Positions 1 through 16,512 of a DNA stretch of 20,669 nucleotides are shown here, one piece after another. A model generated the notes under the pieces. That model ran no database searches, was not told where the DNA came from, and worked only from the letters and a program-made list of their open reading frames with translations. Made by a program: the position numbers and the translations under genes. The DNA is taken from assembly GCA_013204645.1 (NCBI GenBank), contig JABMSE010000102.1, positions 1-20,669 of the forward strand, read 5' to 3'. Position 1 is the stretch's first letter, and the number at the start of each line of letters is the position of its first letter. This DNA is from Candidatus Saganbacteria bacterium. GTDB taxonomy: Bacteria; Margulisbacteria; WOR-1; O2-12-FULL-45-9.

Positions 1-110
1 AAGAATTTGATATTTTTTCTCGCTTGCCCTGAGCTTGCTTGCATTGAGCTTGTCGAAATGTCGAAGGGCTCGTCCAACTCGCTGCGAAAAAAAAATAAAT
101 TCTTGCACTT
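1..110. repeat. Palindromic TIR element, copy A, cut by the window start. Terminal repeats are AAGTGCAAGAATTT and AAATTCTTGCACTT. It is in inverted orientation relative to copy B (1447-1515) and carries a 46-nt internal insertion.
   Basis: Positions 1-28 and 70-110 align to the reverse complement of 1447-1515 with a few mismatches. Positions 25-70 are present only in this copy. The end 101-110 (TCTTGCACTT) matches the 3' end of the terminal inverted repeat. Confidence 0.6.
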
Positions 111-148
111 GTCTTCGATGGCTTATGTTGGTGTATGGTACAGTGTTG

Positions 149-211
149 CAATTCCCCTTCTCTTTCTAAGAGAAGGGGGCAAAGGCTTTACTTAAGCGGG
201 GATGAGTTAGG
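149..211. repeat. 63-nt dispersed repeat, copy 1. It contains a perfect 10-bp hairpin, CCCCTTCTCT/AGAGAAGGGG.
   Basis: 59 of 63 positions are identical to 7171-7233. It ends 1 nt before the dxr stop codon. Confidence 0.75.
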
Positions 212-212
212 T

Positions 213-1355
213 TTATTGGCCTGGGACCATTCTAGCCTCTTTATCCGCGGAAAGGATATCCTCTAAAGATGGGCTCTCTTTATTCTGATGTTTATCCAAG
301 GCTGCCTTAATTTTGAGGGGCAGCTCAGCAAAATTGATTTTGCCTTTTAAAAACAGTTTAATGGCTTCTTCGTTGGCGGCATTTAAAACCGCGGGAAGGG
401 TTCCGCCTTTTTTGCCGGCTTCATAGGCATATTCCAAACAGGGAAATTTGCTTTTGTCGGGTTGCATAAAATCCAGTTTAGAAAGTTTGGCAAAGCTTAA
501 GTGATTCCAGTGATTGGCCATTCTTTTTTCCTCGAGCAAGGCGTATTGAATGGGAATCCGCATATCTGGTGCGCCCAACTGCGCTTTAATTGACCCGTCC
601 ACAAACTCGACAAAAGAATGAATCGTGCTTTGGGGATGAATCAAAACTTCTATTTTAGAATAAGGAAGATCAAACAAATAATGGGCTTCAATTACTTCAA
701 AGCCTTTGTTCATCAAGGTAGCAGAATCAATGCTAATCTTGGGTCCCATTTTCCAGGTAGGGTGTTTTAAGGCTTCCCGAGCCGTTAGGCTGGCAAATTT
801 TTCAACTGGGGTTTTAAGAAAAGGGCCGCCTGAAGCAGTTAAAACAATTTTTTGAATGGTTTTTGGGTCTTCGCCTTTTAAGCACTGGGCAATGGCACTG
901 TGCTCGGAGTCAATGGGAAAAACTTTGATCCCGGCGGCCTTGGCTTCCTTCATAAAAATCTCGCCGGCTGCGACTAAGACTTCTTTGGTGGCTAAGGCAA
1001 TATCTTTTTTGGCTTTAACCGCCTCGAGCACCGGAATCAAGGAAAGAGACCCAGGGATAGCTGCTACAACCATTTTGGCCGATGGTTCGGTTGCGACTTT
1101 GATCAAGCCCTCTTGTCCAACAAAAATTTGGGTTTTGCTTGCGCCTAATTTTTCCGCAACTTTTTGCTTTACTTCTTCGCTGGCAACGGAAACAATCTTT
1201 GGGGAAAACTTCTTGATTTGCTCGACAATGAGGTCAACTTCATCCTTGGCTGCTAAAGCCACAACCGTTAAGCTGCTAGGAAAGATTGAGACTACTTCTA
1301 GGGTTTGTTTGCCAATTGATCCAGTTGAGCCCAAAATAGCGAGGCCTTTTTTCAT
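213..1355 (-). CDS. dxr: 1-deoxy-D-xylulose 5-phosphate reductoisomerase
   Basis: A 386-aa ORF with DXR hallmarks: N-terminal LGSTGSIG NADPH-binding motif, a DSEHSAI motif, and full-length colinearity. The likely true start is the ATG at 1355-1353 (MKKGLAILGSTGSIG). The ORF-track start at 1373 is GTG. Confidence 0.9.
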   Translation of the reverse strand: MKKGLAILGSTGSIGKQTLEVVSIFPSSLTVVALAAKDEVDLIVEQIKKFSPKIVSVASEEVKQKVAEKLGASKTQIFVGQEGLIKVATEPSAKMVVAAIPGSLSLIPVLEAVKAKKDIALATKEVLVAAGEIFMKEAKAAGIKVFPIDSEHSAIAQCLKGEDPKTIQKIVLTASGGPFLKTPVEKFASLTAREALKHPTWKMGPKISIDSATLMNKGFEVIEAHYLFDLPYSKIEVLIHPQSTIHSFVEFVDGSIKAQLGAPDMRIPIQYALLEEKRMANHWNHLSFAKLSKLDFMQPDKSKFPCLEYAYEAGKKGGTLPAVLNAANEEAIKLFLKGKINFAELPLKIKAALDKHQNKESPSLEDILSADKEARMVPGQ

Positions 1356-1446
1356 GATGAGGGTATTATACACTAAAATAATGACTAATTACTAACCCTT
1401 CGACAACGCTCAGGGTTAGTGCCAAGCACCAATGAGGCACCGAAGA

Positions 1447-1515
1447 AAGTGCAAGAATTTATTTTTTTTCGCAGCGAGTCGGACGAGCGAGAAAAAATAT
1501 CAAATTCTTGCACTT
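1447..1515. repeat. Palindromic TIR element, copy B, 69 nt, with 14-bp terminal inverted repeats. MITE-like.
   Basis: AAGTGCAAGAATTT at 1447-1460 and its exact reverse complement at 1502-1515. The internal sequence matches copy A (1-110) in inverted orientation. Confidence 0.6.
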
Positions 1516-1538
1516 ATCCGATAGGCACCTAGGGTACC

Positions 1539-1566
1539 AATTAAATAGTAACCTGTCCCCATTTAA
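1539..1566 (-). repeat. 28-nt repeat R3, an exact inverted copy of 18056-18083.
   Basis: AATTAAATAGTAACCTGTCCCCATTTAA is the reverse complement of TTAAATGGGGACAGGTTACTATTTAATT at 18056-18083. It lies immediately 3' of the 161-aa gene on the minus strand. Confidence 0.7.
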
Positions 1567-1568
1567 AA

Positions 1569-2054
1569 TTACCCCATCGGTAAATCTATAAGCTGCTCAA
1601 GTCTTTCTTTTACTCCTGGTGGTGGTTGAAGAATTGGTTCAACGCCCGCAAGCAAGTCCTGTAAAACCCTTCTCGCAGAGTCAGTGTGGCGGGTCAGAAG
1701 TCGATGGCCAGTGGTACTTTCTTTATATAAATACTCCCGTTCTAAAACATCCAAAACCGCACTAATAATAGCTGGTCTTTCAATAATAACATTAACCGCT
1801 ATGGGACGAAGCTCCTCTGGGCCAGCCACGGCGAGCTTCACTAATCCATCAAGGGTTAATCCTCCTCGCTGAAATCTTCCTGAAAGATTAGCACCTAGAG
1901 GCCCTTTGCCCCAGGGATGCTCCTTTAGGCTTGCCGCAAGCCCGGCATAAGTAACAAAACGGTTGCCAACTTTTTCTTTAGGCGACAAAGCCGCCCATAT
2001 CAAAGGGGCCAAGGCCGTTCGCGCCACAAACATAGTTTTTGATGTAAAACTCAT
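1569..2054 (-). CDS. Hypothetical protein, 161 aa. The family was not recognised. It has an R-x4-H (RLLTRH) motif near the C-terminus, which hints at a possible HEPN-like fold.
   Basis: Long ORF with an AAGGAAAAA-ATG ribosome-binding context. No family signature I can assign. The Rx4H motif is seen in the translation. Confidence 0.55.
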   Translation of the reverse strand: MSFTSKTMFVARTALAPLIWAALSPKEKVGNRFVTYAGLAASLKEHPWGKGPLGANLSGRFQRGGLTLDGLVKLAVAGPEELRPIAVNVIIERPAIISAVLDVLEREYLYKESTTGHRLLTRHTDSARRVLQDLLAGVEPILQPPPGVKERLEQLIDLPMG

Positions 2055-2092
2055 TTTTTCCTTACTTATCTTCTTCGTATATTATTTTAAGA

Positions 2093-2105
2093 AATTTCAC
2101 TTTTC
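2093..2105 (-). promoter_or_regulatory. Shared upstream motif AAAAGTGAAATTT, about 40 nt upstream of the 161-aa gene start
   Basis: The same exact 13-mer occurs at 13351-13363, at the same distance (about 40 nt) from the start of the 187-aa hypothetical gene. Chance expectation in 20 kb on both strands is about 6e-4. Confidence 0.45.
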
Positions 2106-2125
2106 CTGCAATTCTTTGGTTATCA

Positions 2126-2312
2126 TAAATCAGGGCATATCTTTTGCGCAGGCGGTCTCAATCAAGGGAGGCGGAAGGGGCATTTGATCCCGTCCAGGGA
2201 TCAAGGGGTCGCGGGTACCTGCGGGGAAGGCCGTAGCAAGCAGTCGTCCAGACTGCGAAGCGTGGGGAGGGGTGTTTTGAGAGCGCCGAGCAAAATGATA
2301 TGCCCTGATTTA
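2126..2312. ncRNA. GC-rich structured element bounded by 22/23-nt inverted repeats. Candidate ncRNA (6S-like long closing helix?) or MITE.
   Basis: TAAATCAGGGCATATCTTTTGC at 2126-2147 pairs with 2290-2312 as 16 bp, a 1-nt bulge, then 6 bp. The helix continues inward (TCTCAA/TTGAGA). The interior has two G-rich strands and two hairpins with identical GTCCA loops (2184-2204 and 2240-2256). GC is visibly higher than the flanks. Confidence 0.45.
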
Positions 2313-2365
2313 CTTTGCAAAGCTAAATAGTTACCTCAAAACTGCTATACTATACGTACAGCACA

Positions 2366-4180
2366 ATGAAAAAAAATTTGAAGTGGTTAGCGATCATAGT
2401 TGCAGCAATTGTTGCCCTTCTGATAATTGGGGCAGTTGCCCTCCCCTTTTTCCTTCCCTTAGAAAAAATAAAGGATTTTACAACCTCCAAAATTTCAGAC
2501 GCCCTGGGCTGCGAAGTAGCGATTGAAAAAGTTTCCTTTAACCTTTTTTCCGGCATTAAACTTGAGGATATTTCAGTTGGAAATGCTCCGGGTTTCTCTA
2601 AAACCCCTTTTGTCAGGGCTAAAAGCCTTGATCTTCGTTACGCCTTCTGGCCTATATTTAGACGACAACTAATTGTAAAAGAAATAAGATTAGTTTCCCC
2701 ACAAATTTATATTGAAAAAAACGCTCAAGGTCAATTTAATTTCACAAGCTATAAGGCAAAAGACAAATATCCTGACAAGATCTATCCCGATGAGGAAGAT
2801 GCAGCCAAAGAGGACAGCTCCTCCGATAAAAAAGCGCCCTTTTCATTAATTATAGATGCTTTTTCGGTGCGGGATGGGACCATTACCTATTTTGACCAGG
2901 CCACCAATACTAAAAGTAAACTAAAAAACACCAATTTGACGATTTCTGGAATTACCCTTGCACTACTAAAACCGGTTAATCTCCATTTCAAAACCCTGGC
3001 GATTTATCAAGACAAACAAGTCCCGATTTCTCTGGCAGGAAAAATTGAAGTCGACCCCACAAAGAATGAACTCAAAATACCTTCCCTAGAACTAAACATT
3101 GCCGGAGAAAAAGCCAAAATAGAACTTACTATTTCAAACTGGAAAACCGGACCAGACATTAATTTTTCAATTTCCTCGAAAAAATTATCAATTGACCCAT
3201 TGCTGGCTATTTTTGCAGCTGGCGCCCCCAGCGATAAAAAAGCTGCTAAGCCCGGGGCAATTACCAAGGCCGTAAACAAAACTACCTCATCCCTGCCGTC
3301 TACGCTAGCGCTAAAAGGCAAGATTGATCTTGAAAACATCACTTTCCAAAAATTTAAAATTGATAAGCTTGATTTAGACATAAGACTTTTTAAGAAGTGG
3401 TTAGAATTGGAAATAAATGAGGTTGGGCTTTATGACGGGAAACTGTCCGGCACGGCACTAATTAAGCTTGTACCCGGACTCTCATATCAAATAAAAGATT
3501 TAACCCTGACCGGCTTTAATGCCACCCCCTTTGTAAACGCTCTGGTTGAAACGTTTTTAGTCGACAAACCGGTTTATAAGGATTTAATCGATAAGGTTTA
3601 CGGCAGATTAGATCTTAGCTTAAATCTTAGCGGGAGCGGAGTTGAGCCAGGCCCAGCTTTTGCGAATGCCGTTGCAAAAGGGAGTTTCACATTAACCGGC
3701 GGTGAAATCAAGCGCATAAAAACTTTAGCTGAAATTGGGACGCTGATTAATTCAAACACCTTGCAGGAAAACGTGAAATTTAAAGATTTGGGAGCAAGCT
3801 TTAGCTTAAGAAATAAGGTTCTTGAGATCAAAGATCTCAAGCTTGAGGACACAGATTTTTCCGCCCAATTCAGTGGCGGTGCCGATCTAGGCAACGGACA
3901 ATGGATGGCCGGCAACCGTCTTCTGGTCCGCCTTTCCCCAAGCCTTACCCAGGGTCTTCCTTCCCAGCTCAGCGTTTTTCGCGATGATTCTGGCTGGCTC
4001 AATCTTACCTTTGAGCTGACTGGAGCATTTAAAAACACGCGGCTTACCCCAATCTTAGCTACCCCAATCGAGAAAACAGTTGGAAAGCTAAAGATTAAGA
4101 TTGAAGCCCAAAAACTTGAGATTGAGAAAAAAGTTAAAGAAGAATTAGAGAAAAAGGCTAAAGAACTCCTCAACTTTTAA
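2366..4180 (+). CDS. AsmA-family outer-membrane assembly protein
   Basis: 604 aa. It has an N-terminal transmembrane anchor followed by a characteristic AsmA N-domain (VSFNLFSGIKLEDISVGN...LRYAFWPIFRRQLIVKEIRLVSPQIYIE). The body is long and beta-rich, and the C-terminus is a K/E coiled coil. Confidence 0.75.
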   Translation: MKKNLKWLAIIVAAIVALLIIGAVALPFFLPLEKIKDFTTSKISDALGCEVAIEKVSFNLFSGIKLEDISVGNAPGFSKTPFVRAKSLDLRYAFWPIFRRQLIVKEIRLVSPQIYIEKNAQGQFNFTSYKAKDKYPDKIYPDEEDAAKEDSSSDKKAPFSLIIDAFSVRDGTITYFDQATNTKSKLKNTNLTISGITLALLKPVNLHFKTLAIYQDKQVPISLAGKIEVDPTKNELKIPSLELNIAGEKAKIELTISNWKTGPDINFSISSKKLSIDPLLAIFAAGAPSDKKAAKPGAITKAVNKTTSSLPSTLALKGKIDLENITFQKFKIDKLDLDIRLFKKWLELEINEVGLYDGKLSGTALIKLVPGLSYQIKDLTLTGFNATPFVNALVETFLVDKPVYKDLIDKVYGRLDLSLNLSGSGVEPGPAFANAVAKGSFTLTGGEIKRIKTLAEIGTLINSNTLQENVKFKDLGASFSLRNKVLEIKDLKLEDTDFSAQFSGGADLGNGQWMAGNRLLVRLSPSLTQGLPSQLSVFRDDSGWLNLTFELTGAFKNTRLTPILATPIEKTVGKLKIKIEAQKLEIEKKVKEELEKKAKELLNF

Positions 4181-4181
4181 C

Positions 4182-4216
4182 GCAAGTTTTCGTCGCCAAA
4201 ACCCGATATATATAGT
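4182..4216 (+). promoter_or_regulatory. Promoter-like motif copy D: GCAAGTT-N15-CGATATATATAGT
   Basis: One of four copies with identical spacing. The others are at 6060, 17553 and 18863. It sits immediately after the asmA stop and 12 nt before the 4228 ATG. Confidence 0.5.
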
Positions 4217-4227
4217 AGGAGAGCAAC

Positions 4228-4491
4228 ATGAGGAACGCGATTGCCATTTTACTCCTAATATTTGCTGTGCTGGCAAGCCCCGGTGCGTTGGCTGGCGAAG
4301 AAACACCCTATGCTTTCCCGATTAAAGAACTCCATGCTGCCCCGCTAGCAGACTCAGCTATCACCTACAACATCCCCGTTGAGGTGAAATTGCTGGATGT
4401 TTCCGGTGATTGGTATAAAGTCAAAATATCCTACGGCATCGGCCCCCTCCAATATAATTATGTAGGGTGGACACACATTCCCCTGCGCTAA
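4228..4491 (+). CDS. Small secreted protein, 87 aa, with a Sec signal peptide. Possible SH3b-like fold.
   Basis: AGGAG ribosome-binding site 6 nt upstream. Signal peptide MRNAIAILLLIFAVLASPGALA|GE. The GDWYKV...GW pattern is reminiscent of bacterial SH3 domains. Confidence 0.6.
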   Translation: MRNAIAILLLIFAVLASPGALAGEETPYAFPIKELHAAPLADSAITYNIPVEVKLLDVSGDWYKVKISYGIGPLQYNYVGWTHIPLR

Positions 4492-4492
4492 C

Positions 4493-4521
4493 TTGCTTCC
4501 CCTCCCCCAACCTGTTATAAT
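4493..4521 (+). promoter_or_regulatory. Sigma-70-type promoter with an extended -10: TTGCTT-N17-TGTTATAAT
   Basis: -35 TTGCTT at 4493-4498. Extended -10 TGTTATAAT at 4513-4521. It lies upstream of the sORF and the SPFH gene. Confidence 0.5.
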
Positions 4522-4556
4522 CTTTTTCAAATCACAACAAAAAGGAGGGGCATTTT

Positions 4557-4721
4557 ATGATATCAAAAGTAATAAAGATTATTATCGGACTGGCTCTAAT
4601 TGGCCTGGGCGCCTGGACAATTTACCTCTGGTGGGGAGATTTATTGACTTTAATTCGAGGAGGAATTGGCCTGGTTTTAATCCTGGCGGGATTAATTACT
4701 TTTGCCCTGGTTGCAGACTAA
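4557..4721 (+). CDS. Small hydrophobic membrane protein, 54 aa, with two predicted transmembrane segments. It is not in the ORF track.
   Basis: ATG with an AAAGGAGGGG ribosome-binding site 7 nt upstream. The translation MISKVIKIIIGLALIGLGAWTIYLWWGDLLTLIRGGIGLVLILAGLITFALVAD is almost entirely hydrophobic. It lies 50 nt upstream of the SPFH gene, a position typical of NfeD-like partners. Confidence 0.6.
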   Translation: MISKVIKIIIGLALIGLGAWTIYLWWGDLLTLIRGGIGLVLILAGLITFALVAD

Positions 4722-4771
4722 CGGGGACCGGCAAAACAAGCTAACAAGCTATTGTTTATTGGGAGGAAACT

Positions 4772-5533
4772 ATGCTTTCTTATGCCTCACCGATTATCCT
4801 TATAATCCTCTATGTTTTCTTTTCCATTAAACAGATTAACCAGTACGAGCGCGGAGTCAAATTTCGGCTGGGAAAATACGTCGGCATAATGGAGCCCGGG
4901 TGGAAAATTGTTTTCCCTCTTTTTGAAGGCTTTAAGCGGGTTGATATCCGAGTTAAGGCGGTGGATGTTCCGGACCAGGAAGCCATGACACGCGACAACG
5001 TTTCGGTACGCATCAATGCGGTAATTTACTACAAAATCAGCCAAGCCGAAAAATCGGTAATTGAAGTTGAAAACTACTACTACGCTATGTCTCAGCTGGC
5101 TCAAACCACTATGCGAAACATCATTGGAGAAGTAACTTTGGATGAGCTTTTGACCCAGCGCGAATTCCTGGCGAATAAAATTCAGCAAATTACTGATAAG
5201 GCATCCGACCCTTGGGGAATCACTGTTAAGGATGTTTCTCTAAAAGATATTATTCTTCCCGAAGAAATGAAGAGGGTAATTGCCAAACAGGCTGAGGCCG
5301 AAAGAGAAAAAAGGGCGGTCATTATAAAAGCTGAAGGAGAGGTTATGGCCTCCCAAAATATGGCACAAGCAGCTAGAACCCTTTCTTCGGCGCATGGAGC
5401 GCTCCACCTTAAAACCTTGCAATCCATAAAGGACCTTAGCTCTGACCAATCAAACACTATCGTTTTCGCGGTTCCCTTAGAGATTTTGCGGGCTTTTGAA
5501 AGATTTGGCCAGACCGAAACTAAGGCAGGTTAA
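4772..5533 (+). CDS. SPFH/band-7 (stomatin/prohibitin-like) membrane protein
   Basis: GGAGG ribosome-binding site. N-terminal transmembrane segment then an SPFH domain (NQYERGVKFRLGKY...TRDNVSVRINAVIYYKI...). The C-terminus has an EAEREKRA coiled-coil segment. Confidence 0.85.
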   Translation: MLSYASPIILIILYVFFSIKQINQYERGVKFRLGKYVGIMEPGWKIVFPLFEGFKRVDIRVKAVDVPDQEAMTRDNVSVRINAVIYYKISQAEKSVIEVENYYYAMSQLAQTTMRNIIGEVTLDELLTQREFLANKIQQITDKASDPWGITVKDVSLKDIILPEEMKRVIAKQAEAEREKRAVIIKAEGEVMASQNMAQAARTLSSAHGALHLKTLQSIKDLSSDQSNTIVFAVPLEILRAFERFGQTETKAG

Positions 5534-5535
5534 CA

Positions 5536-6048
5536 TTGAAAGAAGAACTTAAAAAACTACTAAAATCTACGGGGGCAGTTAAAACTGGTGAGTTTACTCT
5601 TTCTTCTGGCAAAAAAAGCAATTTCTATGTTGACTGCCGAAAAGTAACGCTTCATCCTCAAGGCGCTAAATTAATCGCTAAAATCATCCTAGAAAAAATA
5701 AAGGGGTTAAAAGTTGACGCCATTGGCGGCTTAACCCTGGGCGCAGATCCAATCACGTCTTCAGTTGTTGCCTTAAGCGATATTCCTGGTTTTATTGTGC
5801 GCAAAAAAGCAAAAGAACATGGAACCCAGCAAAGGATTGAAGGAATAATTGAACCAGGCTGGAAGGTGATAATTGTTGAAGATGTTGCCACCACTGGTGC
5901 GTCAGCCCTTCAGGCTATCGAAGCAGTTGAATCCATTGGCGCCAAAGTTATTAAGGTGATTTCCGTAGTCGACCGCCAAGAAGGCGCAGCCCAAACCCTA
6001 AAAGCCTACGACTTTGATCCGATCTGCACAAAGAACGAACTCCTGTAA
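5536..6048 (+). CDS. pyrE: Orotate phosphoribosyltransferase
   Basis: PRTase fold with a PRPP-binding motif (VIIVEDVATTGAS). The N-terminus GEFTLSSGKKSNFYVD is typical of OPRTase. The apparent start is TTG, overlapping the previous stop. Confidence 0.8.
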   Translation: MKEELKKLLKSTGAVKTGEFTLSSGKKSNFYVDCRKVTLHPQGAKLIAKIILEKIKGLKVDAIGGLTLGADPITSSVVALSDIPGFIVRKKAKEHGTQQRIEGIIEPGWKVIIVEDVATTGASALQAIEAVESIGAKVIKVISVVDRQEGAAQTLKAYDFDPICTKNELL

Positions 6049-6059
6049 CCCTTCCGAAT

Positions 6060-6094
6060 GCAAGTTCTGCCCCCTCAAATACGATATATATAGT
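6060..6094 (+). promoter_or_regulatory. Promoter-like motif copy A: GCAAGTT-N15-CGATATATATAGT
   Basis: Same motif and spacing as the other three copies. It sits right after the pyrE stop and about 95 nt upstream of the 313-aa protein start. Confidence 0.5.
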
Positions 6095-6189
6095 GTAAAC
6101 GAGCCAAAAACAGAAGAACATGATTCTCAAGCCACGCTTGTGCCCGCTTGAGTATTTTCTTCTGCGAAATAAAAGGGAGGAAACAAATA

Positions 6190-7089
6190 ATGGTACCACC
6201 AACCCCACCCCGCGGAGTGAGGAGAGCCCATATCTTAGGCCCGGGTCCTACTGGCCCACGAGGGAAAAACTCCCCACCCCCCACCTTAAAAGATCTTCTC
6301 CATGACATAGCGGCAAAAAGGGCCAAAAGATCTCACAAATATGCGGGGTATCTCCCTGAGCAAGTTACTGCTTACTTAACCGATAGATATGTGCGACAAG
6401 CACAGTTATTTGAAACCTTAGTTGCCAATCATGGCTTTAGGCTGCTAGCTCCCGAAGGAGAGGTTGAGACAGCTACTCCACTTTCGGTTATTTTCCTCAC
6501 CGCCGATGGATATGTGATGTGCCTTTCGGCTCCAAGACCAGATGGAACATTTGAGAATGCTCGAACCAGTGCTTATTTGAGTATTGGGAACACAACCAAG
6601 ATTGGGAAGGAAGATCAGAATACTGCTTTTTATGCTCCTGTTAAAGTAGGGGGGAGGTCCCCCATTGCGCGAACAAACACTATTTTTCAAGGTGGCAAAA
6701 TAATTTGCGTTGCCGTTGCCGAAGTTACCCCAGAGACAACTCCATTTGAAATATGTTTGGGAGTGATCTTAGGGCTTCGTGAGCAAAGATTACCTAAGCT
6801 AGAAGCACCAGCCGTTCCCACCGTTCGTCCTCCAGTGCAAGAAATGGCTGCAACAGTTGCGATGCCAACCCTGGGTGACCCCGGCGGCGTAAAATCAGAA
6901 CTAGACCGAGCATTACGTCCAGGAAGAGATCTGGATACACCCCTTCGTAAGCGACCAACCCACGAAAAGGGTGGCGTTTTCAGCATAAGAAAGGATTTCG
7001 GCCTTGAGCCCGCTTCCAAAAAACGCTCCTCGCTCGCCTGGCGAATTATCACTTGGCTGCCTAGGCAGATTGCAAAATTGTTTGAATAA
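6190..7089 (+). CDS. Hypothetical protein, about 300 aa, Pro/Gly/Arg-rich N-terminus, no signal peptide, compositional outlier
   Basis: Strong AAGGGAGG ribosome-binding site 8 nt before the ATG at 6190. The ORF track begins at an in-frame ATG at 6148. GC is visibly higher than in neighbouring genes. No recognisable family. Confidence 0.6.
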   Translation: MVPPTPPRGVRRAHILGPGPTGPRGKNSPPPTLKDLLHDIAAKRAKRSHKYAGYLPEQVTAYLTDRYVRQAQLFETLVANHGFRLLAPEGEVETATPLSVIFLTADGYVMCLSAPRPDGTFENARTSAYLSIGNTTKIGKEDQNTAFYAPVKVGGRSPIARTNTIFQGGKIICVAVAEVTPETTPFEICLGVILGLREQRLPKLEAPAVPTVRPPVQEMAATVAMPTLGDPGGVKSELDRALRPGRDLDTPLRKRPTHEKGGVFSIRKDFGLEPASKKRSSLAWRIITWLPRQIAKLFE

Positions 7090-7109
7090 TCTACTAACTC
7101 ACCTCCTAA

Positions 7110-7134
7110 CCTCCTCTCTTAAAAAGAGAGGAGG
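7110..7134 (+). terminator. Perfect 10-bp pyrimidine/purine hairpin (CCTCCTCTCT/AGAGAGGAGG), a candidate terminator for the 313-aa gene
   Basis: Seen directly. It has no U-tract. Its style is similar to the hairpin in the 63-nt repeat. Confidence 0.4.
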
Positions 7135-7170
7135 ACATTAGTTCAAGAAAATATTATTTTAGTTCTGTCA

Positions 7171-7233
7171 CAATTCCCCTTCTCTTTCTAAGAGAAGGGG
7201 GCGATGGCTTTCCCTAAGCGGGGATGAGTTAGG
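7171..7233. repeat. 63-nt dispersed repeat, copy 2. It contains a perfect 10-bp hairpin, CCCCTTCTCT/AGAGAAGGGG.
   Basis: 59 of 63 positions are identical to 149-211. Confidence 0.75.
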
Positions 7234-7240
7234 CCTCAAC

Positions 7241-7270
7241 TTGTCCACCTCCCTCATCTTCTGATATACT
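7241..7270 (+). promoter_or_regulatory. Candidate sigma-70 promoter for tRNA-Thr: TTGTCC-N18-TATACT
   Basis: -35 at 7241-7246, -10 at 7265-7270, about 22 nt before the tRNA. Confidence 0.4.
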
Positions 7271-7292
7271 ATCCCTTAGCCTATTTTTCGTT

Positions 7293-7365
7293 GCCCGTGT
7301 AGCTCAGTTGGTAGAGCATTTCCATGGTAAGGAAAAGGTCGCCGGTTCAACTCCGGCCGCGGGCT
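7293..7365 (+). tRNA. tRNA-Thr (anticodon GGU). No encoded CCA.
   Basis: Cloverleaf: acceptor GCCCGTG/CGCGGGC, D-arm GCTC...GAGC, anticodon stem TTTCC/GGAAA with loop ATGGTAA (anticodon GGT), T-arm GCCGG-TTCAACT-CCGGC, discriminator T. Lying upstream of tuf, as is typical. Confidence 0.9.
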
Positions 7366-13255: not shown

Positions 13256-13350
13256 CTGTCCCGACGACATTAATATATTTGATAGTGGAATGTCGGGATC
13301 CCGTCCTTGGCGGGAAAATTTCGTAAACTGAAAATTTCAAAATCTTCGCA

Positions 13351-13363
13351 AAAAGTGAAATTT
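13351..13363 (+). promoter_or_regulatory. Shared upstream motif AAAAGTGAAATTT, about 41 nt upstream of the 187-aa gene start
   Basis: Identical 13-mer to 2093-2105 on the minus strand at the equivalent position. It is flanked by a related TGAAAATTTCA half-site. Confidence 0.45.
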
Positions 13364-13404
13364 TCCCCCAAATTTGTCGATAAAAGATATAGGAGGAATC
13401 ACAT

Positions 13405-13968
13405 ATGCGATCAGTAGGAAGACCTATGGCAAGCCGGGGCTCAAGTAGAACAGCCCCCCCGGCAAAACAAGTGGCTGTTCTAAGAACCAATAATAATACG
13501 TGGGGAATAAAGATTCGCGAAGGCACACGGCTTGGGATAACAAGAAACTTATCTGTTTTTGTTCTTAATGACCGGAAGCATTCGGATGTCATTGTTGAGC
13601 TAGAGTGTCGAAGAATTGCAAGCCAGCTTGTTTTAATGGTTAAGCCAATTAAGCCAGGAACTAGCATTAGGATAAATCAACCAAGTGCCCCTTCGCCCTT
13701 TAATCAAGAAACAACCTTGTCAAATACTCATGGTTCTACTCGCCCTCCCCAAATGCAGCTGGCATGGGATACAACTATTTCCGTTTCGCAAAATAATGCT
13801 GGGGGAAAAGAATCTCCAGGATTAATCAGACTAGAACTTGGCGACGATCCTGGTTTTTCTCGGGCACGCACTACATTAATAGAAAAAGCCGTTGCTGACA
13901 CAGTAGCTTCTCGCAATCGACACGTCTATCACGGGACACGACGTGGGCCCAACCTTAGGAATGGCTAA
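13405..13968 (+). CDS. Hypothetical protein, 187 aa. It is R/S/T/N-rich with an atypical composition for this genome.
   Basis: Canonical AGGAGG ribosome-binding site 8 nt upstream of the ATG. No family recognised. Its composition is unlike the K-rich neighbours, so the coding status is not certain. Confidence 0.45.
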   Translation: MRSVGRPMASRGSSRTAPPAKQVAVLRTNNNTWGIKIREGTRLGITRNLSVFVLNDRKHSDVIVELECRRIASQLVLMVKPIKPGTSIRINQPSAPSPFNQETTLSNTHGSTRPPQMQLAWDTTISVSQNNAGGKESPGLIRLELGDDPGFSRARTTLIEKAVADTVASRNRHVYHGTRRGPNLRNG

Positions 13969-14037
13969 AAATGATATTACAAAGAGCAACAGTGCCAATC
14001 GCAGCAAGGCGGGTGGGAACCTTTCGTCCGTTAACCA

Positions 14038-14436
14038 TTGTTTTGGTGGCCCGCGGACAACAAAAAAAAGGGGGGGGTGATTGCTGCTCTGTTCGCAAAA
14101 GGAATAGACGTTACCTCTCTTGGCCAAATTGGAATTAAAACTAAAAATGATCTTTCTGCTTTAAACGCTTTTCTTGATAGCAAAGAAAAACAAGGTTTAG
14201 ATCAACGGGTAAGAGAAAAGCTGGGTTTAATTGATGGGGTGGCGAAACTTATTCTTCCCTCCGGTACCACAATTTTCTATCGCTCTTCTTGCGCAGACGC
14301 AAATGGACGCCTTATAAAAGAGCTGCGTGCATTAGAGGACCAACGCCCGTGCCGCCCCGAAGAAGTTTTTAACACTCACTTATCCGGCCTTAAAACAGTT
14401 TCTTTAACTACTGGGGATTTTAGTTTACTTGCCTAG
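14038..14436 (+). CDS. Hypothetical ORF of 132 codons with no internal Met. It is possibly the 3' part of a phase-variable or frameshifted gene starting at ATG 13971.
   Basis: The ORF has only TTG (14038) or GTG (14077) as candidate starts. An ATG at 13971, 2 nt after the upstream stop, reads 35 codons and runs out of frame at the A8G8 tract. A 1-nt contraction of the tract would fuse the two into a protein of about 155 aa. Confidence 0.35.
   Translation: MFWWPADNKKKGGVIAALFAKGIDVTSLGQIGIKTKNDLSALNAFLDSKEKQGLDQRVREKLGLIDGVAKLILPSGTTIFYRSSCADANGRLIKELRALEDQRPCRPEEVFNTHLSGLKTVSLTTGDFSLLA
14062..14077. repeat. Homopolymeric tract A8G8
   Basis: Seen directly: CAAAAAAAAGGGGGGGGT. It lies at the junction between two reading frames: ATG 13971 in frame 0, and ORF 14038-14436 in frame +1. 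Confidence 0.9.
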
Positions 14437-14459
14437 TTCTTTCCTGCTCTTTAAAAAAA

Positions 14460-14468
14460 TGTTATAAT
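14460..14468 (+). promoter_or_regulatory. Extended -10 TGTTATAAT, 12 nt upstream of the aminotransferase ATG, implying a near-leaderless transcript
   Basis: Seen directly. There is no Shine-Dalgarno sequence between the -10 and the ATG at 14480. Confidence 0.4.
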
Positions 14469-14479
14469 ACCCACTTGTT

Positions 14480-15586: not shown

Positions 15587-16512
15587 AAAAAAACCGCGGT
15601 TTAAGAATAGGAGTTATCGGCACTGGGACTATGGGCAAACATCATGCCAGAGTTTCTGCCCTGCTTCTAGATGGGGCTTATTTAGCAGCCGTTTCAGATA
15701 TCGACGAGAAAAAGGCACAGGAAATTGCTTCAAAGTATGAGGGGGTTTGCGTTTTCAAAGATTACAAGGAAATGCTTGCCTTAGTAGATGCCGTGGTTAT
15801 TGTTACCCCGACTGATACCCACTTTGAAATCTGCGGCGAATGCCTTAATGCGGGCAAGCATGTTTTAGTTGAAAAACCCTTTACCAAAACCTCCGATCAA
15901 GCCCAAAAACTCATGGAGTTGGCAGCCGAAAAAAACCTAGTTCTGGCCGTTGGTTTAATTGAAAGATTTAATCCAGCTTTCCAAGAAATATTGAAACTAA
16001 TTAAAAAAGAAAAAATAATTGGCATAAACATAAAGCGCTTTAGCCCTTTTCCAGAGCGCATAACCGATACAAATGTAATTTTTGATATGATGATCCACGA
16101 CTTAGACCTTTTATATAGTATGCGGCATAAAGACGAGGTCGAAGGGCTTAAGGCCGAGGGCCAAAAAGTTAAAAGCGATAAATTAGACAAGGTTTCCGCC
16201 ACCATTTTCTTTAATTCTGGCATTATCGCCAAGGTTGATGCTGATCGAGTTTTTGGCATAAAAACGCGGAAAATCTCGGTTGCAACCGAGCGGGCCATAG
16301 TTGAGGCCGATCTTTTGACTAAGCGGGTATACGTACGGGACCTAACCCATCATATCCCAAGCACGCATCATGTAAAAGACAAAGATCAGTTAACCGAAGA
16401 GTTAATGGATTTTATAGGCGCCATAAAAACCAATTCGCAGCCAACGGTCTGCGCAGAAGATGGTTTTCGTGCTCTCAAATTAGCTGAGGAGGTAGAAAAA
16501 GCATGTTCCTAA
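15583..16512 (+). CDS. Gfo/Idh/MocA-family NAD-dependent sugar oxidoreductase (GnnA/WbpB-like)
   Basis: N-terminal Rossmann motif GVIGTGTMGKHH and the conserved EKP motif (VLVEKPF). The start overlaps the upstream stop. Confidence 0.85.
   Translation: MKKNRGLRIGVIGTGTMGKHHARVSALLLDGAYLAAVSDIDEKKAQEIASKYEGVCVFKDYKEMLALVDAVVIVTPTDTHFEICGECLNAGKHVLVEKPFTKTSDQAQKLMELAAEKNLVLAVGLIERFNPAFQEILKLIKKEKIIGINIKRFSPFPERITDTNVIFDMMIHDLDLLYSMRHKDEVEGLKAEGQKVKSDKLDKVSATIFFNSGIIAKVDADRVFGIKTRKISVATERAIVEADLLTKRVYVRDLTHHIPSTHHVKDKDQLTEELMDFIGAIKTNSQPTVCAEDGFRALKLAEEVEKACS

Follow-up and report, generated by a model that had tools for sequence, protein, structure and literature searches.

A probable lineage-specific addition between pyrE and tRNA-Thr of Candidatus Saganbacteria: an orphan gene behind a putative sigma-28-like promoter

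The DNA analysed here, called the window throughout, is a whole contig of 20,669 bp from a metagenome-assembled genome (MAG) designated 'Candidatus Saganbacteria bacterium'. Between pyrE and the gene for tRNA-Thr(GGT), it carries an orphan open reading frame (ORF), annotated as the hypothetical protein HQ596_05065 and hereafter called the target, which looks like a genuine protein-coding gene. That a real gene, a lineage-specific insertion and a native base composition are combined at this locus is, in our judgment, highly likely. Our best explanation as a whole, to which we assign a probability of about 0.6, is that a block of ∼1.19 kb (6049-7236) was placed after the pyrE stop codon and before the ancestral promoter of tRNA-Thr. 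The block would constitute a self-contained expression unit, made of a sigma-28-like promoter, a 95-nucleotide (nt) leader, a Shine-Dalgarno sequence, an ORF of 299 codons and two stable CT/AG hairpins that probably set the 3' end of the mRNA. We infer that the product may be basic and combine a small alpha/beta core with disordered arms rich in Pro, that it is probably held at the cytoplasmic face of the membrane by its C-terminal amphipathic helix (SLAWRIITWLPRQIAKLFE), and that it could serve as an accessory part of an envelope, surface or motility programme under that sigma factor. Taken by itself, the membrane-peripheral accessory role is a tentative proposal that we consider doubtful. 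The features of the locus are as follows.

4182..4216 (+), second exact copy of the putative promoter, before the conserved small secreted protein s87 (4228-4491)
6057..6094 (+), putative promoter of the target, AATGCAAGTT-N15-CGATATATATAGT, equivalent to GCAA-N16-TACGATAT, with its start 11 nt downstream of the pyrE stop codon
6095..6189 (+), 5' leader, 95 nt, with an imperfect stem-loop (6111-6164) and the Shine-Dalgarno sequence AAGGGAGG (6173-6180)
6190..7089 (+), target, orphan coding sequence, 299 amino acids (aa), 32.6 kDa, isoelectric point 9.9
7110..7134, perfect CT/AG hairpin, 11 bp, 3-nt loop, no U-tract after it
7166..7233 (+), dispersed repeat, 68 nt, with its own 11-bp CT/AG hairpin (7176-7200)
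7237..7270 (+), ancestral tRNA-Thr promoter, AACTTGTCC...TCTGATATACT, from junction comparison, a local alignment score of 26 and a promoter scan
7293..7365 (+), tRNA-Thr(GGT), the conserved neighbor of pyrE in relatives

Evidence for a genuine protein-coding gene

The ATG at 6190 sits 9 nt after the Shine-Dalgarno sequence, and the initiation region of the target is 88% identical to the ribosome-binding region of tuf. A preliminary description of this DNA had given the ORF as 6190-7089 and its product as 313 aa; the ORF is indeed present, these coordinates correspond to 299 aa, and 313 aa is obtained only from a TTG at 6148 that has no Shine-Dalgarno sequence. At the base composition found locally, 313 codons would run on without a stop with a probability of ∼1.3e-7, and when the intergenic block of 1,244 nt was shuffled 2,000 times, no open frame exceeded 205 codons. 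With a codon model trained on the other genes of the window, the annotated frame scored +0.153 bits/codon and the other five frames were negative; the annotated frame was also the best of the six in every 40-codon window. The negative scores of the minus-strand frames led us to reject a shadow ORF, that is, a real gene on the minus strand. The score of the target is lower than those of housekeeping genes (0.25 to 0.47) and close to those of lpxC, s87 and orf161.

Besides the MAG contig, two assemblies contain the same DNA with 100% identity: contig L081 of a JGI metagenome, which overlaps positions 1-7353 of the window, and contig L082 of the Logan assembly of run SRR28106056, which covers 5341-7201; the samples are perhaps not independent. 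The identical recovery of this DNA in L081 and L082 means that the pyrE-to-ORF junction is not the artefact of one assembler.

A block added at the pyrE/tRNA-Thr junction

We compared the locus with 17 Saganbacteria/WOR-1/Margulisiibacteriota loci obtained from a pyrE genome scan and with 8 backbone loci from a metagenome scan. These relatives share a conserved backbone, dxr-asmA-s87-pyrE-tRNAThr-tuf-vanW-lpxC-fabZ/lpxA-lpxB-degT-gfo-rseP-folD, and the order pyrE, tRNA-Thr(GGT), tuf, already proposed for the window, is correct. The gap from pyrE to tuf measures 158 to 233 nt in 18 of 24 relatives, which leaves room for tRNA-Thr only, versus 1,409 nt in the window. The check for orthologues at this junction, suggested in the preliminary description, found the target at the syntenic position in 0 of the 24 relatives, and the gene is thus not conserved there across the clade. 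Other relatives hold other cargo at the same place: in L001, a membrane protein of 427 aa that contains a signal-peptidase-II domain and is encoded on the minus strand; in L007, ∼8 kb that include genes for a radical-SAM protein and for an ABC transporter; in L009, a 407-aa ORF and a Thr-rich repeat lipoprotein; and in L011, a 132-aa ORF. None of this cargo is recognizably related to the target.

In the junctions of the 25 relatives, the compact ones have a tRNA promoter of the form ...gaaCTTGTCtga|TCTTCTGAT..TCTGATATACT, with a -35 element overlapping the pyrE stop codon. The retention of this ancestral promoter at 7237-7270 defines the right-hand edge of the insertion. The inserted block (∼6049-7236, ∼1.19 kb) has the promoter motif at its start and the 68-nt repeat, which ends at 7233, at its right end, and it is placed 5' of tRNA-Thr and not at the 3' end of the tRNA. 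Local alignment of the block ends in search of a target-site duplication or direct repeats gave nothing better than shuffles, and no integrase or transposase is encoded in the window. A reading of the hairpin elements, previously said to bracket the gene, as a sign of mobility does not hold in view of the lack of flanking direct repeats, of an integrase or transposase and of an attC-like fold. Since relatives have just 3 to 40 nt between pyrE and the tRNA, the gene was not born in place from ancestral non-coding DNA.

As a side observation, the tRNA-Thr/tuf promoter of compact genomes (relatives L002-L016, L095, L181, L197 and others) has TTGTCT as -35 element over the pyrE stop codon and TGATATACT as -10 element at 13 to 17 nt before the tRNA. 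In L012, L015 and L085, pyrE and the tRNA gene overlap, the pyrE ORF reaching its stop codon inside the 5' end of the tRNA.

An orphan with native silent sites

A search of 5.8 billion clusters matched the target to nothing but itself, and an exhaustive phmmer search over 1.84 billion representatives (∼15 billion proteins) returned only the self-match. The absence of a recognizable domain, reported previously, is confirmed by Pfam, NCBIfam, PHROGs, PADLOC and PDB sequences, none of which gave a match; Pfam at E values up to 10 with four fragments and phmmer against PDB at E values up to 10 also yielded nothing. No relative of the target and no copy of the promoter motif were found in the IMG/VR viral contigs, and phmmer and BLASTP searches against six-frame ORFs of at least 50 aa from 202 fetched loci recovered only the two identical copies. 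With no PHROG or PADLOC match and nothing in IMG/VR, we rejected a phage or defence origin. Single-sequence AlphaFold2 models had a mean predicted local distance difference test score (pLDDT) of 37 for the full protein and of 40 for the core (residues 30-207), values that preclude a usable fold comparison. The search for remote homology and structure advocated earlier therefore gave no homologue on the sequence side and models too poor for a fold search on the structural side. A likeness by eye of the core to a GlcG/DUF336 or roadblock-like alpha-beta-beta-alpha-beta-beta-alpha arrangement was dropped, as it had no statistical support.

The G+C content (GC) of the target, 49.3%, is the highest of the 22 ORFs, against a window mean of 44.5%, so that the 'visibly higher GC' of the preliminary description is real, though barely above that of s87 (49.2%) and due to the first two codon positions. 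By codon position, GC amounts to 58.3% (first), 50.3% (second) and 39.3% (third, GC3); the GC3 of 0.393 is below the window average and below that of most genes (other ORFs, 0.335 to 0.523), and the synonymous-codon log-score of 0.039 falls inside the window range (0.002 to 0.128). The protein is rich in Pro (10.4%), has high proportions of Gly, Ala and Thr, and contains more Arg (8.4%) than Lys (5.7%), whereas in the housekeeping proteins of the window Lys is far above Arg. The GC excess, restricted to codon positions 1 and 2, results from this Pro/Arg/Gly/Ala/Thr-rich product. The gene had been called compositionally foreign, a term that we abandon: silent-site statistics are within the normal range, total GC is outside it, and that excess mirrors amino acid composition. 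By these statistics, the gene is resident in, or originated in, a genome of this composition.

Recent horizontal transfer from a donor of different composition, be it a phage, a plasmid or another phylum, with later wiring to a host promoter, would account for the absence of the gene from all syntenic relatives, for a junction that is a variable hotspot, for the atypical residues and for the top total GC. We consider this scenario unlikely, however, because GC3 and synonymous codons are native, because no donor-like homologue exists in the ∼15 billion proteins or the viral contigs, because PHROG and PADLOC matches, an integrase, a transposase and flanking direct repeats are all missing, and because the block has the clade's own promoter consensus and a host-type Shine-Dalgarno sequence. 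Of the earlier proposal that the gene was acquired and recruited, we retain a lineage-specific addition, absent from 24 of 24 syntenic relatives (18 of them compact) and equipped with a clade promoter, and we discard the foreign composition.

Another possibility is that the ORF is a nonfunctional or very young proto-gene, open by accident in recently inserted or rearranged DNA and encoding no selected protein. The target is a singleton without homologue, ∼40% of it is predicted to be disordered or of low complexity, AlphaFold2 confidence was low twice, its codon score is under that of housekeeping genes, and it contains the promoter-like copy described below. Nevertheless, the length of the stop-free run (P, ∼1e-7), which no shuffle equalled, the consistent frame signal, and a consensus promoter combined with a Shine-Dalgarno sequence of tuf quality all argue for a selected gene, and the 3 to 40 nt present at the junction in relatives leave no material for an origin in place. 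We hold such a proto-gene to be distinctly unlikely.

A putative promoter class shared across the clade

The exact motif GCAAGTT-N15-CGATATATATAGT, noted previously before the target, occurs twice in the window, at 4182-4216 and 6060-6094, with 0 occurrences expected by chance. A variant ending in ...CGATAATACATATGT precedes two small secreted ORFs (17553-17587 and 18863-18897), and a second one, TGAAATT-N15-CGATAAAAG, precedes the orphan o187 (13356-13390). The promoter is thus common to the target and to small secreted proteins, as first described, and the motif is conserved in the clade: it is kept upstream of s87 orthologues in 10 of 17 relatives, and it follows the lpxB stop codon immediately in L003 and after 27 nt in L010, with a different orphan downstream in each. 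In five of the six junctions checked, the promoter begins 1 to 27 nt after the upstream stop codon; the distances in the window are 3 nt for o89, 11 nt for the target and ∼100 nt for o187, the sixth junction.

A relaxed pattern matched 32 times in 287 kb of Saganbacteria loci versus 5 times in 1,033 kb of unrelated control loci, and the exact 19-base pattern was found in at least 120 metagenome stretches. Among the matches listed, this class accounts for 90 unique sites, from which the consensus cATGCAAGTTTT..C.....AaCC-CGATATATATAGT(G/A)nAA was derived. The class may be abbreviated GCAAGTTT-N12-CCCGATATATATAGT, or cATGCAAGTTTT-N-CCCGATATATATAGT with the TGAAATT -35 variant, and written in register as GCAA-N16-(C/A)CCGATAT. 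As far as these patterns tell, the motif class is conserved across Saganbacteria and Margulisiibacteriota. Another 23 sites among the matches listed (loci including L087, L102, L118, L122, L137, L140, L141, L150, L156 and L157) have TTGACA within the 'spacer' and TATAGTATAAT downstream, and they precede small ORFs of 65 to 100 aa on marine contigs. Judged by these elements, they are ordinary sigma-70-type promoters unrelated to the Saganbacteria motif.

The published consensus of WhiG2 is T(A/C)AA-N16-GCCGATAA with an invariant central CGA (PMC12871210), and that of Escherichia coli sigma-28 is TAAAGTTT-n11-GCCGATAA (PMC2859248). The -10 element at the target, TACGATAT, agrees with GCCGATAA at 5 of 8 positions, CGA included, and the clade -10 consensus (C/A)CCGATAT, drawn from the 90 listed sites, agrees at 6 to 7 of 8. 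The spacing GCAA-N16-xCCGA is found in every exact site and equals a 12-nt spacer in E. coli notation (published, 11 to 12 nt). The -35 element reads GCAAGTT(T), sharing CAA with the WhiG2 form and having G instead of T as first base in 82% of the sites. This match in register, together with the different, TTGACA/TATAAT type of the tuf upstream region, leads us to read the motif as the target of a sigma-28-family or similar alternative sigma factor, and we think it probable that the target is transcribed from a promoter of the sigma-28-family type.

Within the target ORF there is a near-copy of the motif (GCAAGTT-N14-CGATAGATATGTG, 6360-6393), after which comes a small hairpin (6390-6404). Chance would produce ∼0.06 such sites over the whole window; the near-copy may have arisen by chance, or it may represent a promoter that is vestigial or internal.

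A basic protein with a predicted C-terminal amphipathic helix

Residues 1-46 of the target form a Pro/Arg/Gly-rich tail with 22% Pro and a strongly basic net charge, and Pro plus Gly make up 37.5% of the first 40 aa, in agreement with the Pro/Gly/Arg-rich N terminus reported before. Helices are predicted for residues ∼33-81, then a beta-rich and only mildly hydrophobic part (∼85-200) and a basic linker with 14% Pro (201-280). The last residues, 282-299 (LAWRIITWLPRQIAKLFE), have a helical hydrophobic moment of 0.66, the highest of the protein, and are preceded by KKRS. A Sec signal peptide is excluded, as the preliminary description had it, with a best 12-aa Kyte-Doolittle window of -0.19, which is not hydrophobic, in the first 40 aa, and no transmembrane segment was detected (maximum 19-aa Kyte-Doolittle window, 1.34). 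A Tat signal is not present either: the RR at residues 11-12 leads into AHILGPGPTGPRG, which is no hydrophobic core. On inspection by eye, both the Tat motif (RR) and a PilZ motif (RxxxR ... D/NxSxxG) in the N terminus were incomplete. The target thus probably combines a basic, in part disordered chain with an amphipathic helix at its C terminus.

Genes driven by the promoter class elsewhere

The first ORF after each unique site of the class was collected, and the results in this paragraph hold among the matches listed. Of the 55 downstream ORFs that reach 60 aa, 45 have no hydrophobic N terminus. Pfam, queried with 57 proteins (56 downstream ORFs and the target), recognized no domain in most of them, the exceptions being a transglutaminase core (4 proteins), MltA/3D, LysM, Ig-like and one GGDEF. 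Flagellin, FlgM and hook-associated-protein domains were found by Pfam neither in these 57 promoter-driven proteins nor in 10 examined afterwards. Several downstream proteins are giants of 900 to >3,700 aa on the sequenced fragments (L107, L108, L121, L132, L135, L142 and others). They share the N terminus M(T/A)(D/E)P.INQ(I/V)NNI.QID.TSDIAGGAAV.PSYI, all stand behind this promoter, have no signal peptide and in some cases contain transglutaminase cores; one relative is named 'transglutaminase domain-containing protein [Candidatus Margulisiibacteriota]'. Gly/Pro-rich N termini like that of the target are found in L105 and L129, with MVPPVPGGVQGPYFP (MVPPVPGG...). To the extent that such features define it, the target matches the typical cargo of the promoter class, which as a whole is functionally dark.

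These proteins bear on the suggestion, made in the preliminary description, that the target could be an effector leaving the cell by a non-Sec route. One version of it would be a secreted substrate or effector that passes through a flagellar-type III apparatus controlled by sigma-28, with the disordered N terminus as export signal. The sigma-28-like promoter, the 45 first genes without a hydrophobic N terminus, the Gly/Pro-rich starts of several of them, and the flagellins and flagellar genes reported in some Margulisbacteria (PMC7018530, PMC11607428) would fit with such export. However, the contig contains no flagellar or secretion genes, the listed promoter-driven proteins have none of the flagellar domains sought, and the main Saganbacteria genomics paper makes no mention of motility, flagella, pili, sigma factors or secretion. 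Moreover, the C-terminal amphipathic helix and the high isoelectric point suit a cytoplasmic membrane-peripheral protein equally well. Export by this route therefore strikes us as improbable.

Two further observations concern the surroundings of promoter copies. An RseP-like site-2 protease with M50 and PDZ domains (16503-17549) ends 3 nt before one promoter copy; in model bacteria, RseP-like proteases free alternative sigma factors from membrane anti-sigma factors. Besides, a leader element made of GCCAYCTGCA, then the complementary TGCAGRTGG and a terminator-like hairpin with a U-run, stands behind this promoter in 11 of 88 metagenome leaders among the matches listed (L088, L098, L100, L134, L144, L153, L155, L176, L177 and L180 among the loci) and in the leaders of o89 (17586-17702) and o84 (18896-19031). 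It has no Rfam match and looks like an uncharacterised attenuator or riboswitch-like element. The leader of the target itself does not contain the GCCAYCTGCA element.

Leader, hairpins and dispersed repeat

The 95-nt leader of the target and its 7-bp stem (6126-6132/6146-6152), both reported previously, are present, the latter as the inner stem of a stem-loop with a U-rich 3' arm; the fold, at -21.9 kcal/mol, is statistically unremarkable (z = -1.6). The CT/AG hairpin at 7110-7134 is perfect as announced, with a stem of 11 bp and not of 10, and its fold is stable (z = -4.0; 0 of 200 shuffles fold as well). A promoter/terminator scan did not flag it as a canonical intrinsic terminator. We suggest that it is probably a structure marking the mRNA 3' end or resembling a terminator. 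No U-tract follows either 3' hairpin (7110-7134 or 7176-7200), and canonical hairpin-plus-U terminators follow o89, o84 and the tRNA. In Rfam, the leader and the hairpins had no match beyond chance.

The dispersed repeat that had been described after the target is indeed there, and its second copy, at 144-211, is 91 to 94% identical and abuts the dxr stop codon. It was found in no other genome among the 202 loci, and the Logan contig L082 ends inside it. The copy next to the target ends in GTTAGGC (7227-7233) and the other one in GTTAGGT. In integrons, the attC R' core has the consensus GTTRRRY. An integron-type cassette at a secondary site, with the downstream hairpins as attC, would thus find support in an ORF followed by ∼130 nt of hairpin-forming sequence ending in a fitting core, with a repeat end that coincides with the insertion boundary, but it is scarcely tenable given an upstream partner TCCTAAC that is not RYYYAAC, a unit with its own promoter unlike typical cassettes, the lack of intI and of an attC array in the window, and a 7-mer core expected about once per kb by chance. 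The attC reading was rejected on its fold as well: single-stranded DNA of either strand folds into two independent perfect hairpins, with no R''/L''-L'/R' stem, and there is no integrase.

Other islets and the neighborhood

The window contains two further islets that are absent from relatives, o187 plus o132 between lpxB and degT, and o89 plus the ORF6N gene plus o84 between rseP and folD. The first (13256-14479) comprises o187, with 11.2% Arg and a GC at second codon positions (GC2) of 0.516, behind the TGAAATT promoter variant, and then o132. Among the 5.8 billion clusters, o187 has one homologue only, 71% identical. For o132, the likely start codon is a GTG (14077) preceded by an A8G8 homopolymer tract (14062-14077), possibly a slipped-strand switch for this gene. 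In relatives, the lpxB/degT interval is either compact (20 to 175 nt) or filled with other orphans, those of L003 and L010 behind the same promoter.

The second islet (17551-19400) consists of a module in tandem duplicate with a period of ∼1,310 nt. In each copy, a promoter and a leader of ∼115 to 135 nt precede a small secreted ORF (o89 in one, o84 in the other), and a terminator repeat of 77 nt completes the module. Between the copies lies the ORF6N gene (18168-18809), which is anti-repressor-like (PADLOC PDC-S05, E = 4.6e-56). The rseP-folD spacing is -4 to 34 nt in relatives, where the whole islet is absent.

The gene order of the window is as follows.

First part: dxr (minus strand), AsmA-like protein, small secreted s87, SPFH protein, pyrE (5536-6048), target
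Middle: tRNA-Thr(GGT), tuf, VanW protein, lpxC, fabZ-lpxA, lpxB, two unannotated ORFs
End: DegT aminotransferase, Gfo/Idh/MocA-family oxidoreductase (gfo), RseP-like site-2 protease
Last: two small secreted ORFs flanking the ORF6N gene, then folD (minus strand)

Inverted duplicates of an AT-rich promoter-like sequence (AAATTCTTGCACTT) are located on both sides of dxr (1-113 versus 1447-1515), and a perfect 28-nt inverted match links the 3' region of orf161 (1539-1566) to the terminator repeat of o89 (18056-18083). The contig ends (20618-20669) with 13-nt tandem repeats (GGTGACTGACAC[C/T]), which constitute an inverted repeat as well and are probably the reason why the assembly stops at 20669.

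Weight and meaning of the proposed explanation

Several points weigh against the explanation that we favor. The relatives sampled are distant, the nearest having pyrE proteins up to 86 to 94% identical, so that the term 'lineage-specific' dates the insertion only coarsely. Assignment of the promoter to sigma-28 has to accommodate a -35 element that reads GCAA and not TAAA, with a first base G often preceded by AT, as well as the absence of a sigma-28-family sigma gene and of flagellar genes from this 20.7-kb contig. Among the matches listed, the 57 promoter-driven proteins gave only single weak matches to FliK and FlgD-Ig, and almost all driven genes are uncharacterised. With regard to the protein, the domain layout rests on low-confidence secondary structure, both AlphaFold2 models being poor, and a proline sits in the middle of the C-terminal helix.

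Taken alone, the target is one more hypothetical protein, in an uncultivated phylum where orphan genes are common. It nonetheless offers a synteny-dated example of a singleton arriving as a complete expression unit at a core-gene junction with no foreign compositional signature. We see more interest in the promoter class and in the pattern of orphan islets that bring such a promoter to junctions between core genes. Should the motif be confirmed, it would give a practical handle for defining the regulon and for ranking 'dark' genes in a phylum without cultured members.

A much broader idea, which we regard as a long shot, is that the sigma-28-like promoter marks a phylum-wide Margulisiibacteriota repertoire of fast-turnover 'dark' proteins, mostly Sec-less and some of them giant. 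Singletons would be repeatedly installed as ready-made units (promoter, ORF and hairpin) close behind the stop codons of core genes, and they would act as surface or exported non-Sec factors under one developmental or motility sigma factor. If true, this would amount to an uncharacterised mechanism for making and wiring accessory genes in an uncultivated phylum.

Comparison with known systems

MinD and FtsA possess C-terminal amphipathic membrane-targeting helices. As in these proteins, a basic run in the target is followed by a predicted 18-residue helix at the extreme C terminus, after a flexible linker, with a Trp/Ile/Leu/Phe face opposed to an Arg/Lys/Gln face. Unlike them, the target has neither an ATPase nor an actin-like domain, and the proline mentioned above interrupts the likeness of the helix itself.

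The 68-nt repeat resembles intergenic hairpin repeats of the repetitive extragenic palindromic (REP) or miniature inverted-repeat transposable element (MITE) type, as well as terminator hairpins that lack a U-tract, in being short, in its perfect 11-bp stem, in abutting gene 3' ends twice and in breaking an assembly. It differs from them in that two copies are visible here, with none in relatives, and in having no terminal inverted repeats or target-site duplication.

The promoter shares with those of the sigma-28 family (FliA/SigD/WhiG) the same two-block register, xCAA-N16-CCGATAT versus T(A/C)AA-N16-GCCGATAA, the AAGTTT common to the motif and the E. coli -35 element, and a position before non-housekeeping genes. 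Apart from the -35 differences given above, it departs from them by a long conserved AT-rich stretch after the -10 element (ATATAGT[G/A]nAA) and by downstream genes that are mostly uncharacterised, with no recognizable flagellar or chemotaxis genes.

Lastly, the locus is comparable to the flexible islets in which ORFans are found: the target is a singleton at a junction whose cargo differs among genomes, and the window holds two more such islets. It is set apart from typical ORFan islets by the lack of a silent-site compositional anomaly and of mobility genes, and by the fact that the first genes here (the target, o187 and o89, and also o84) bring with them the same clade-specific type of promoter.

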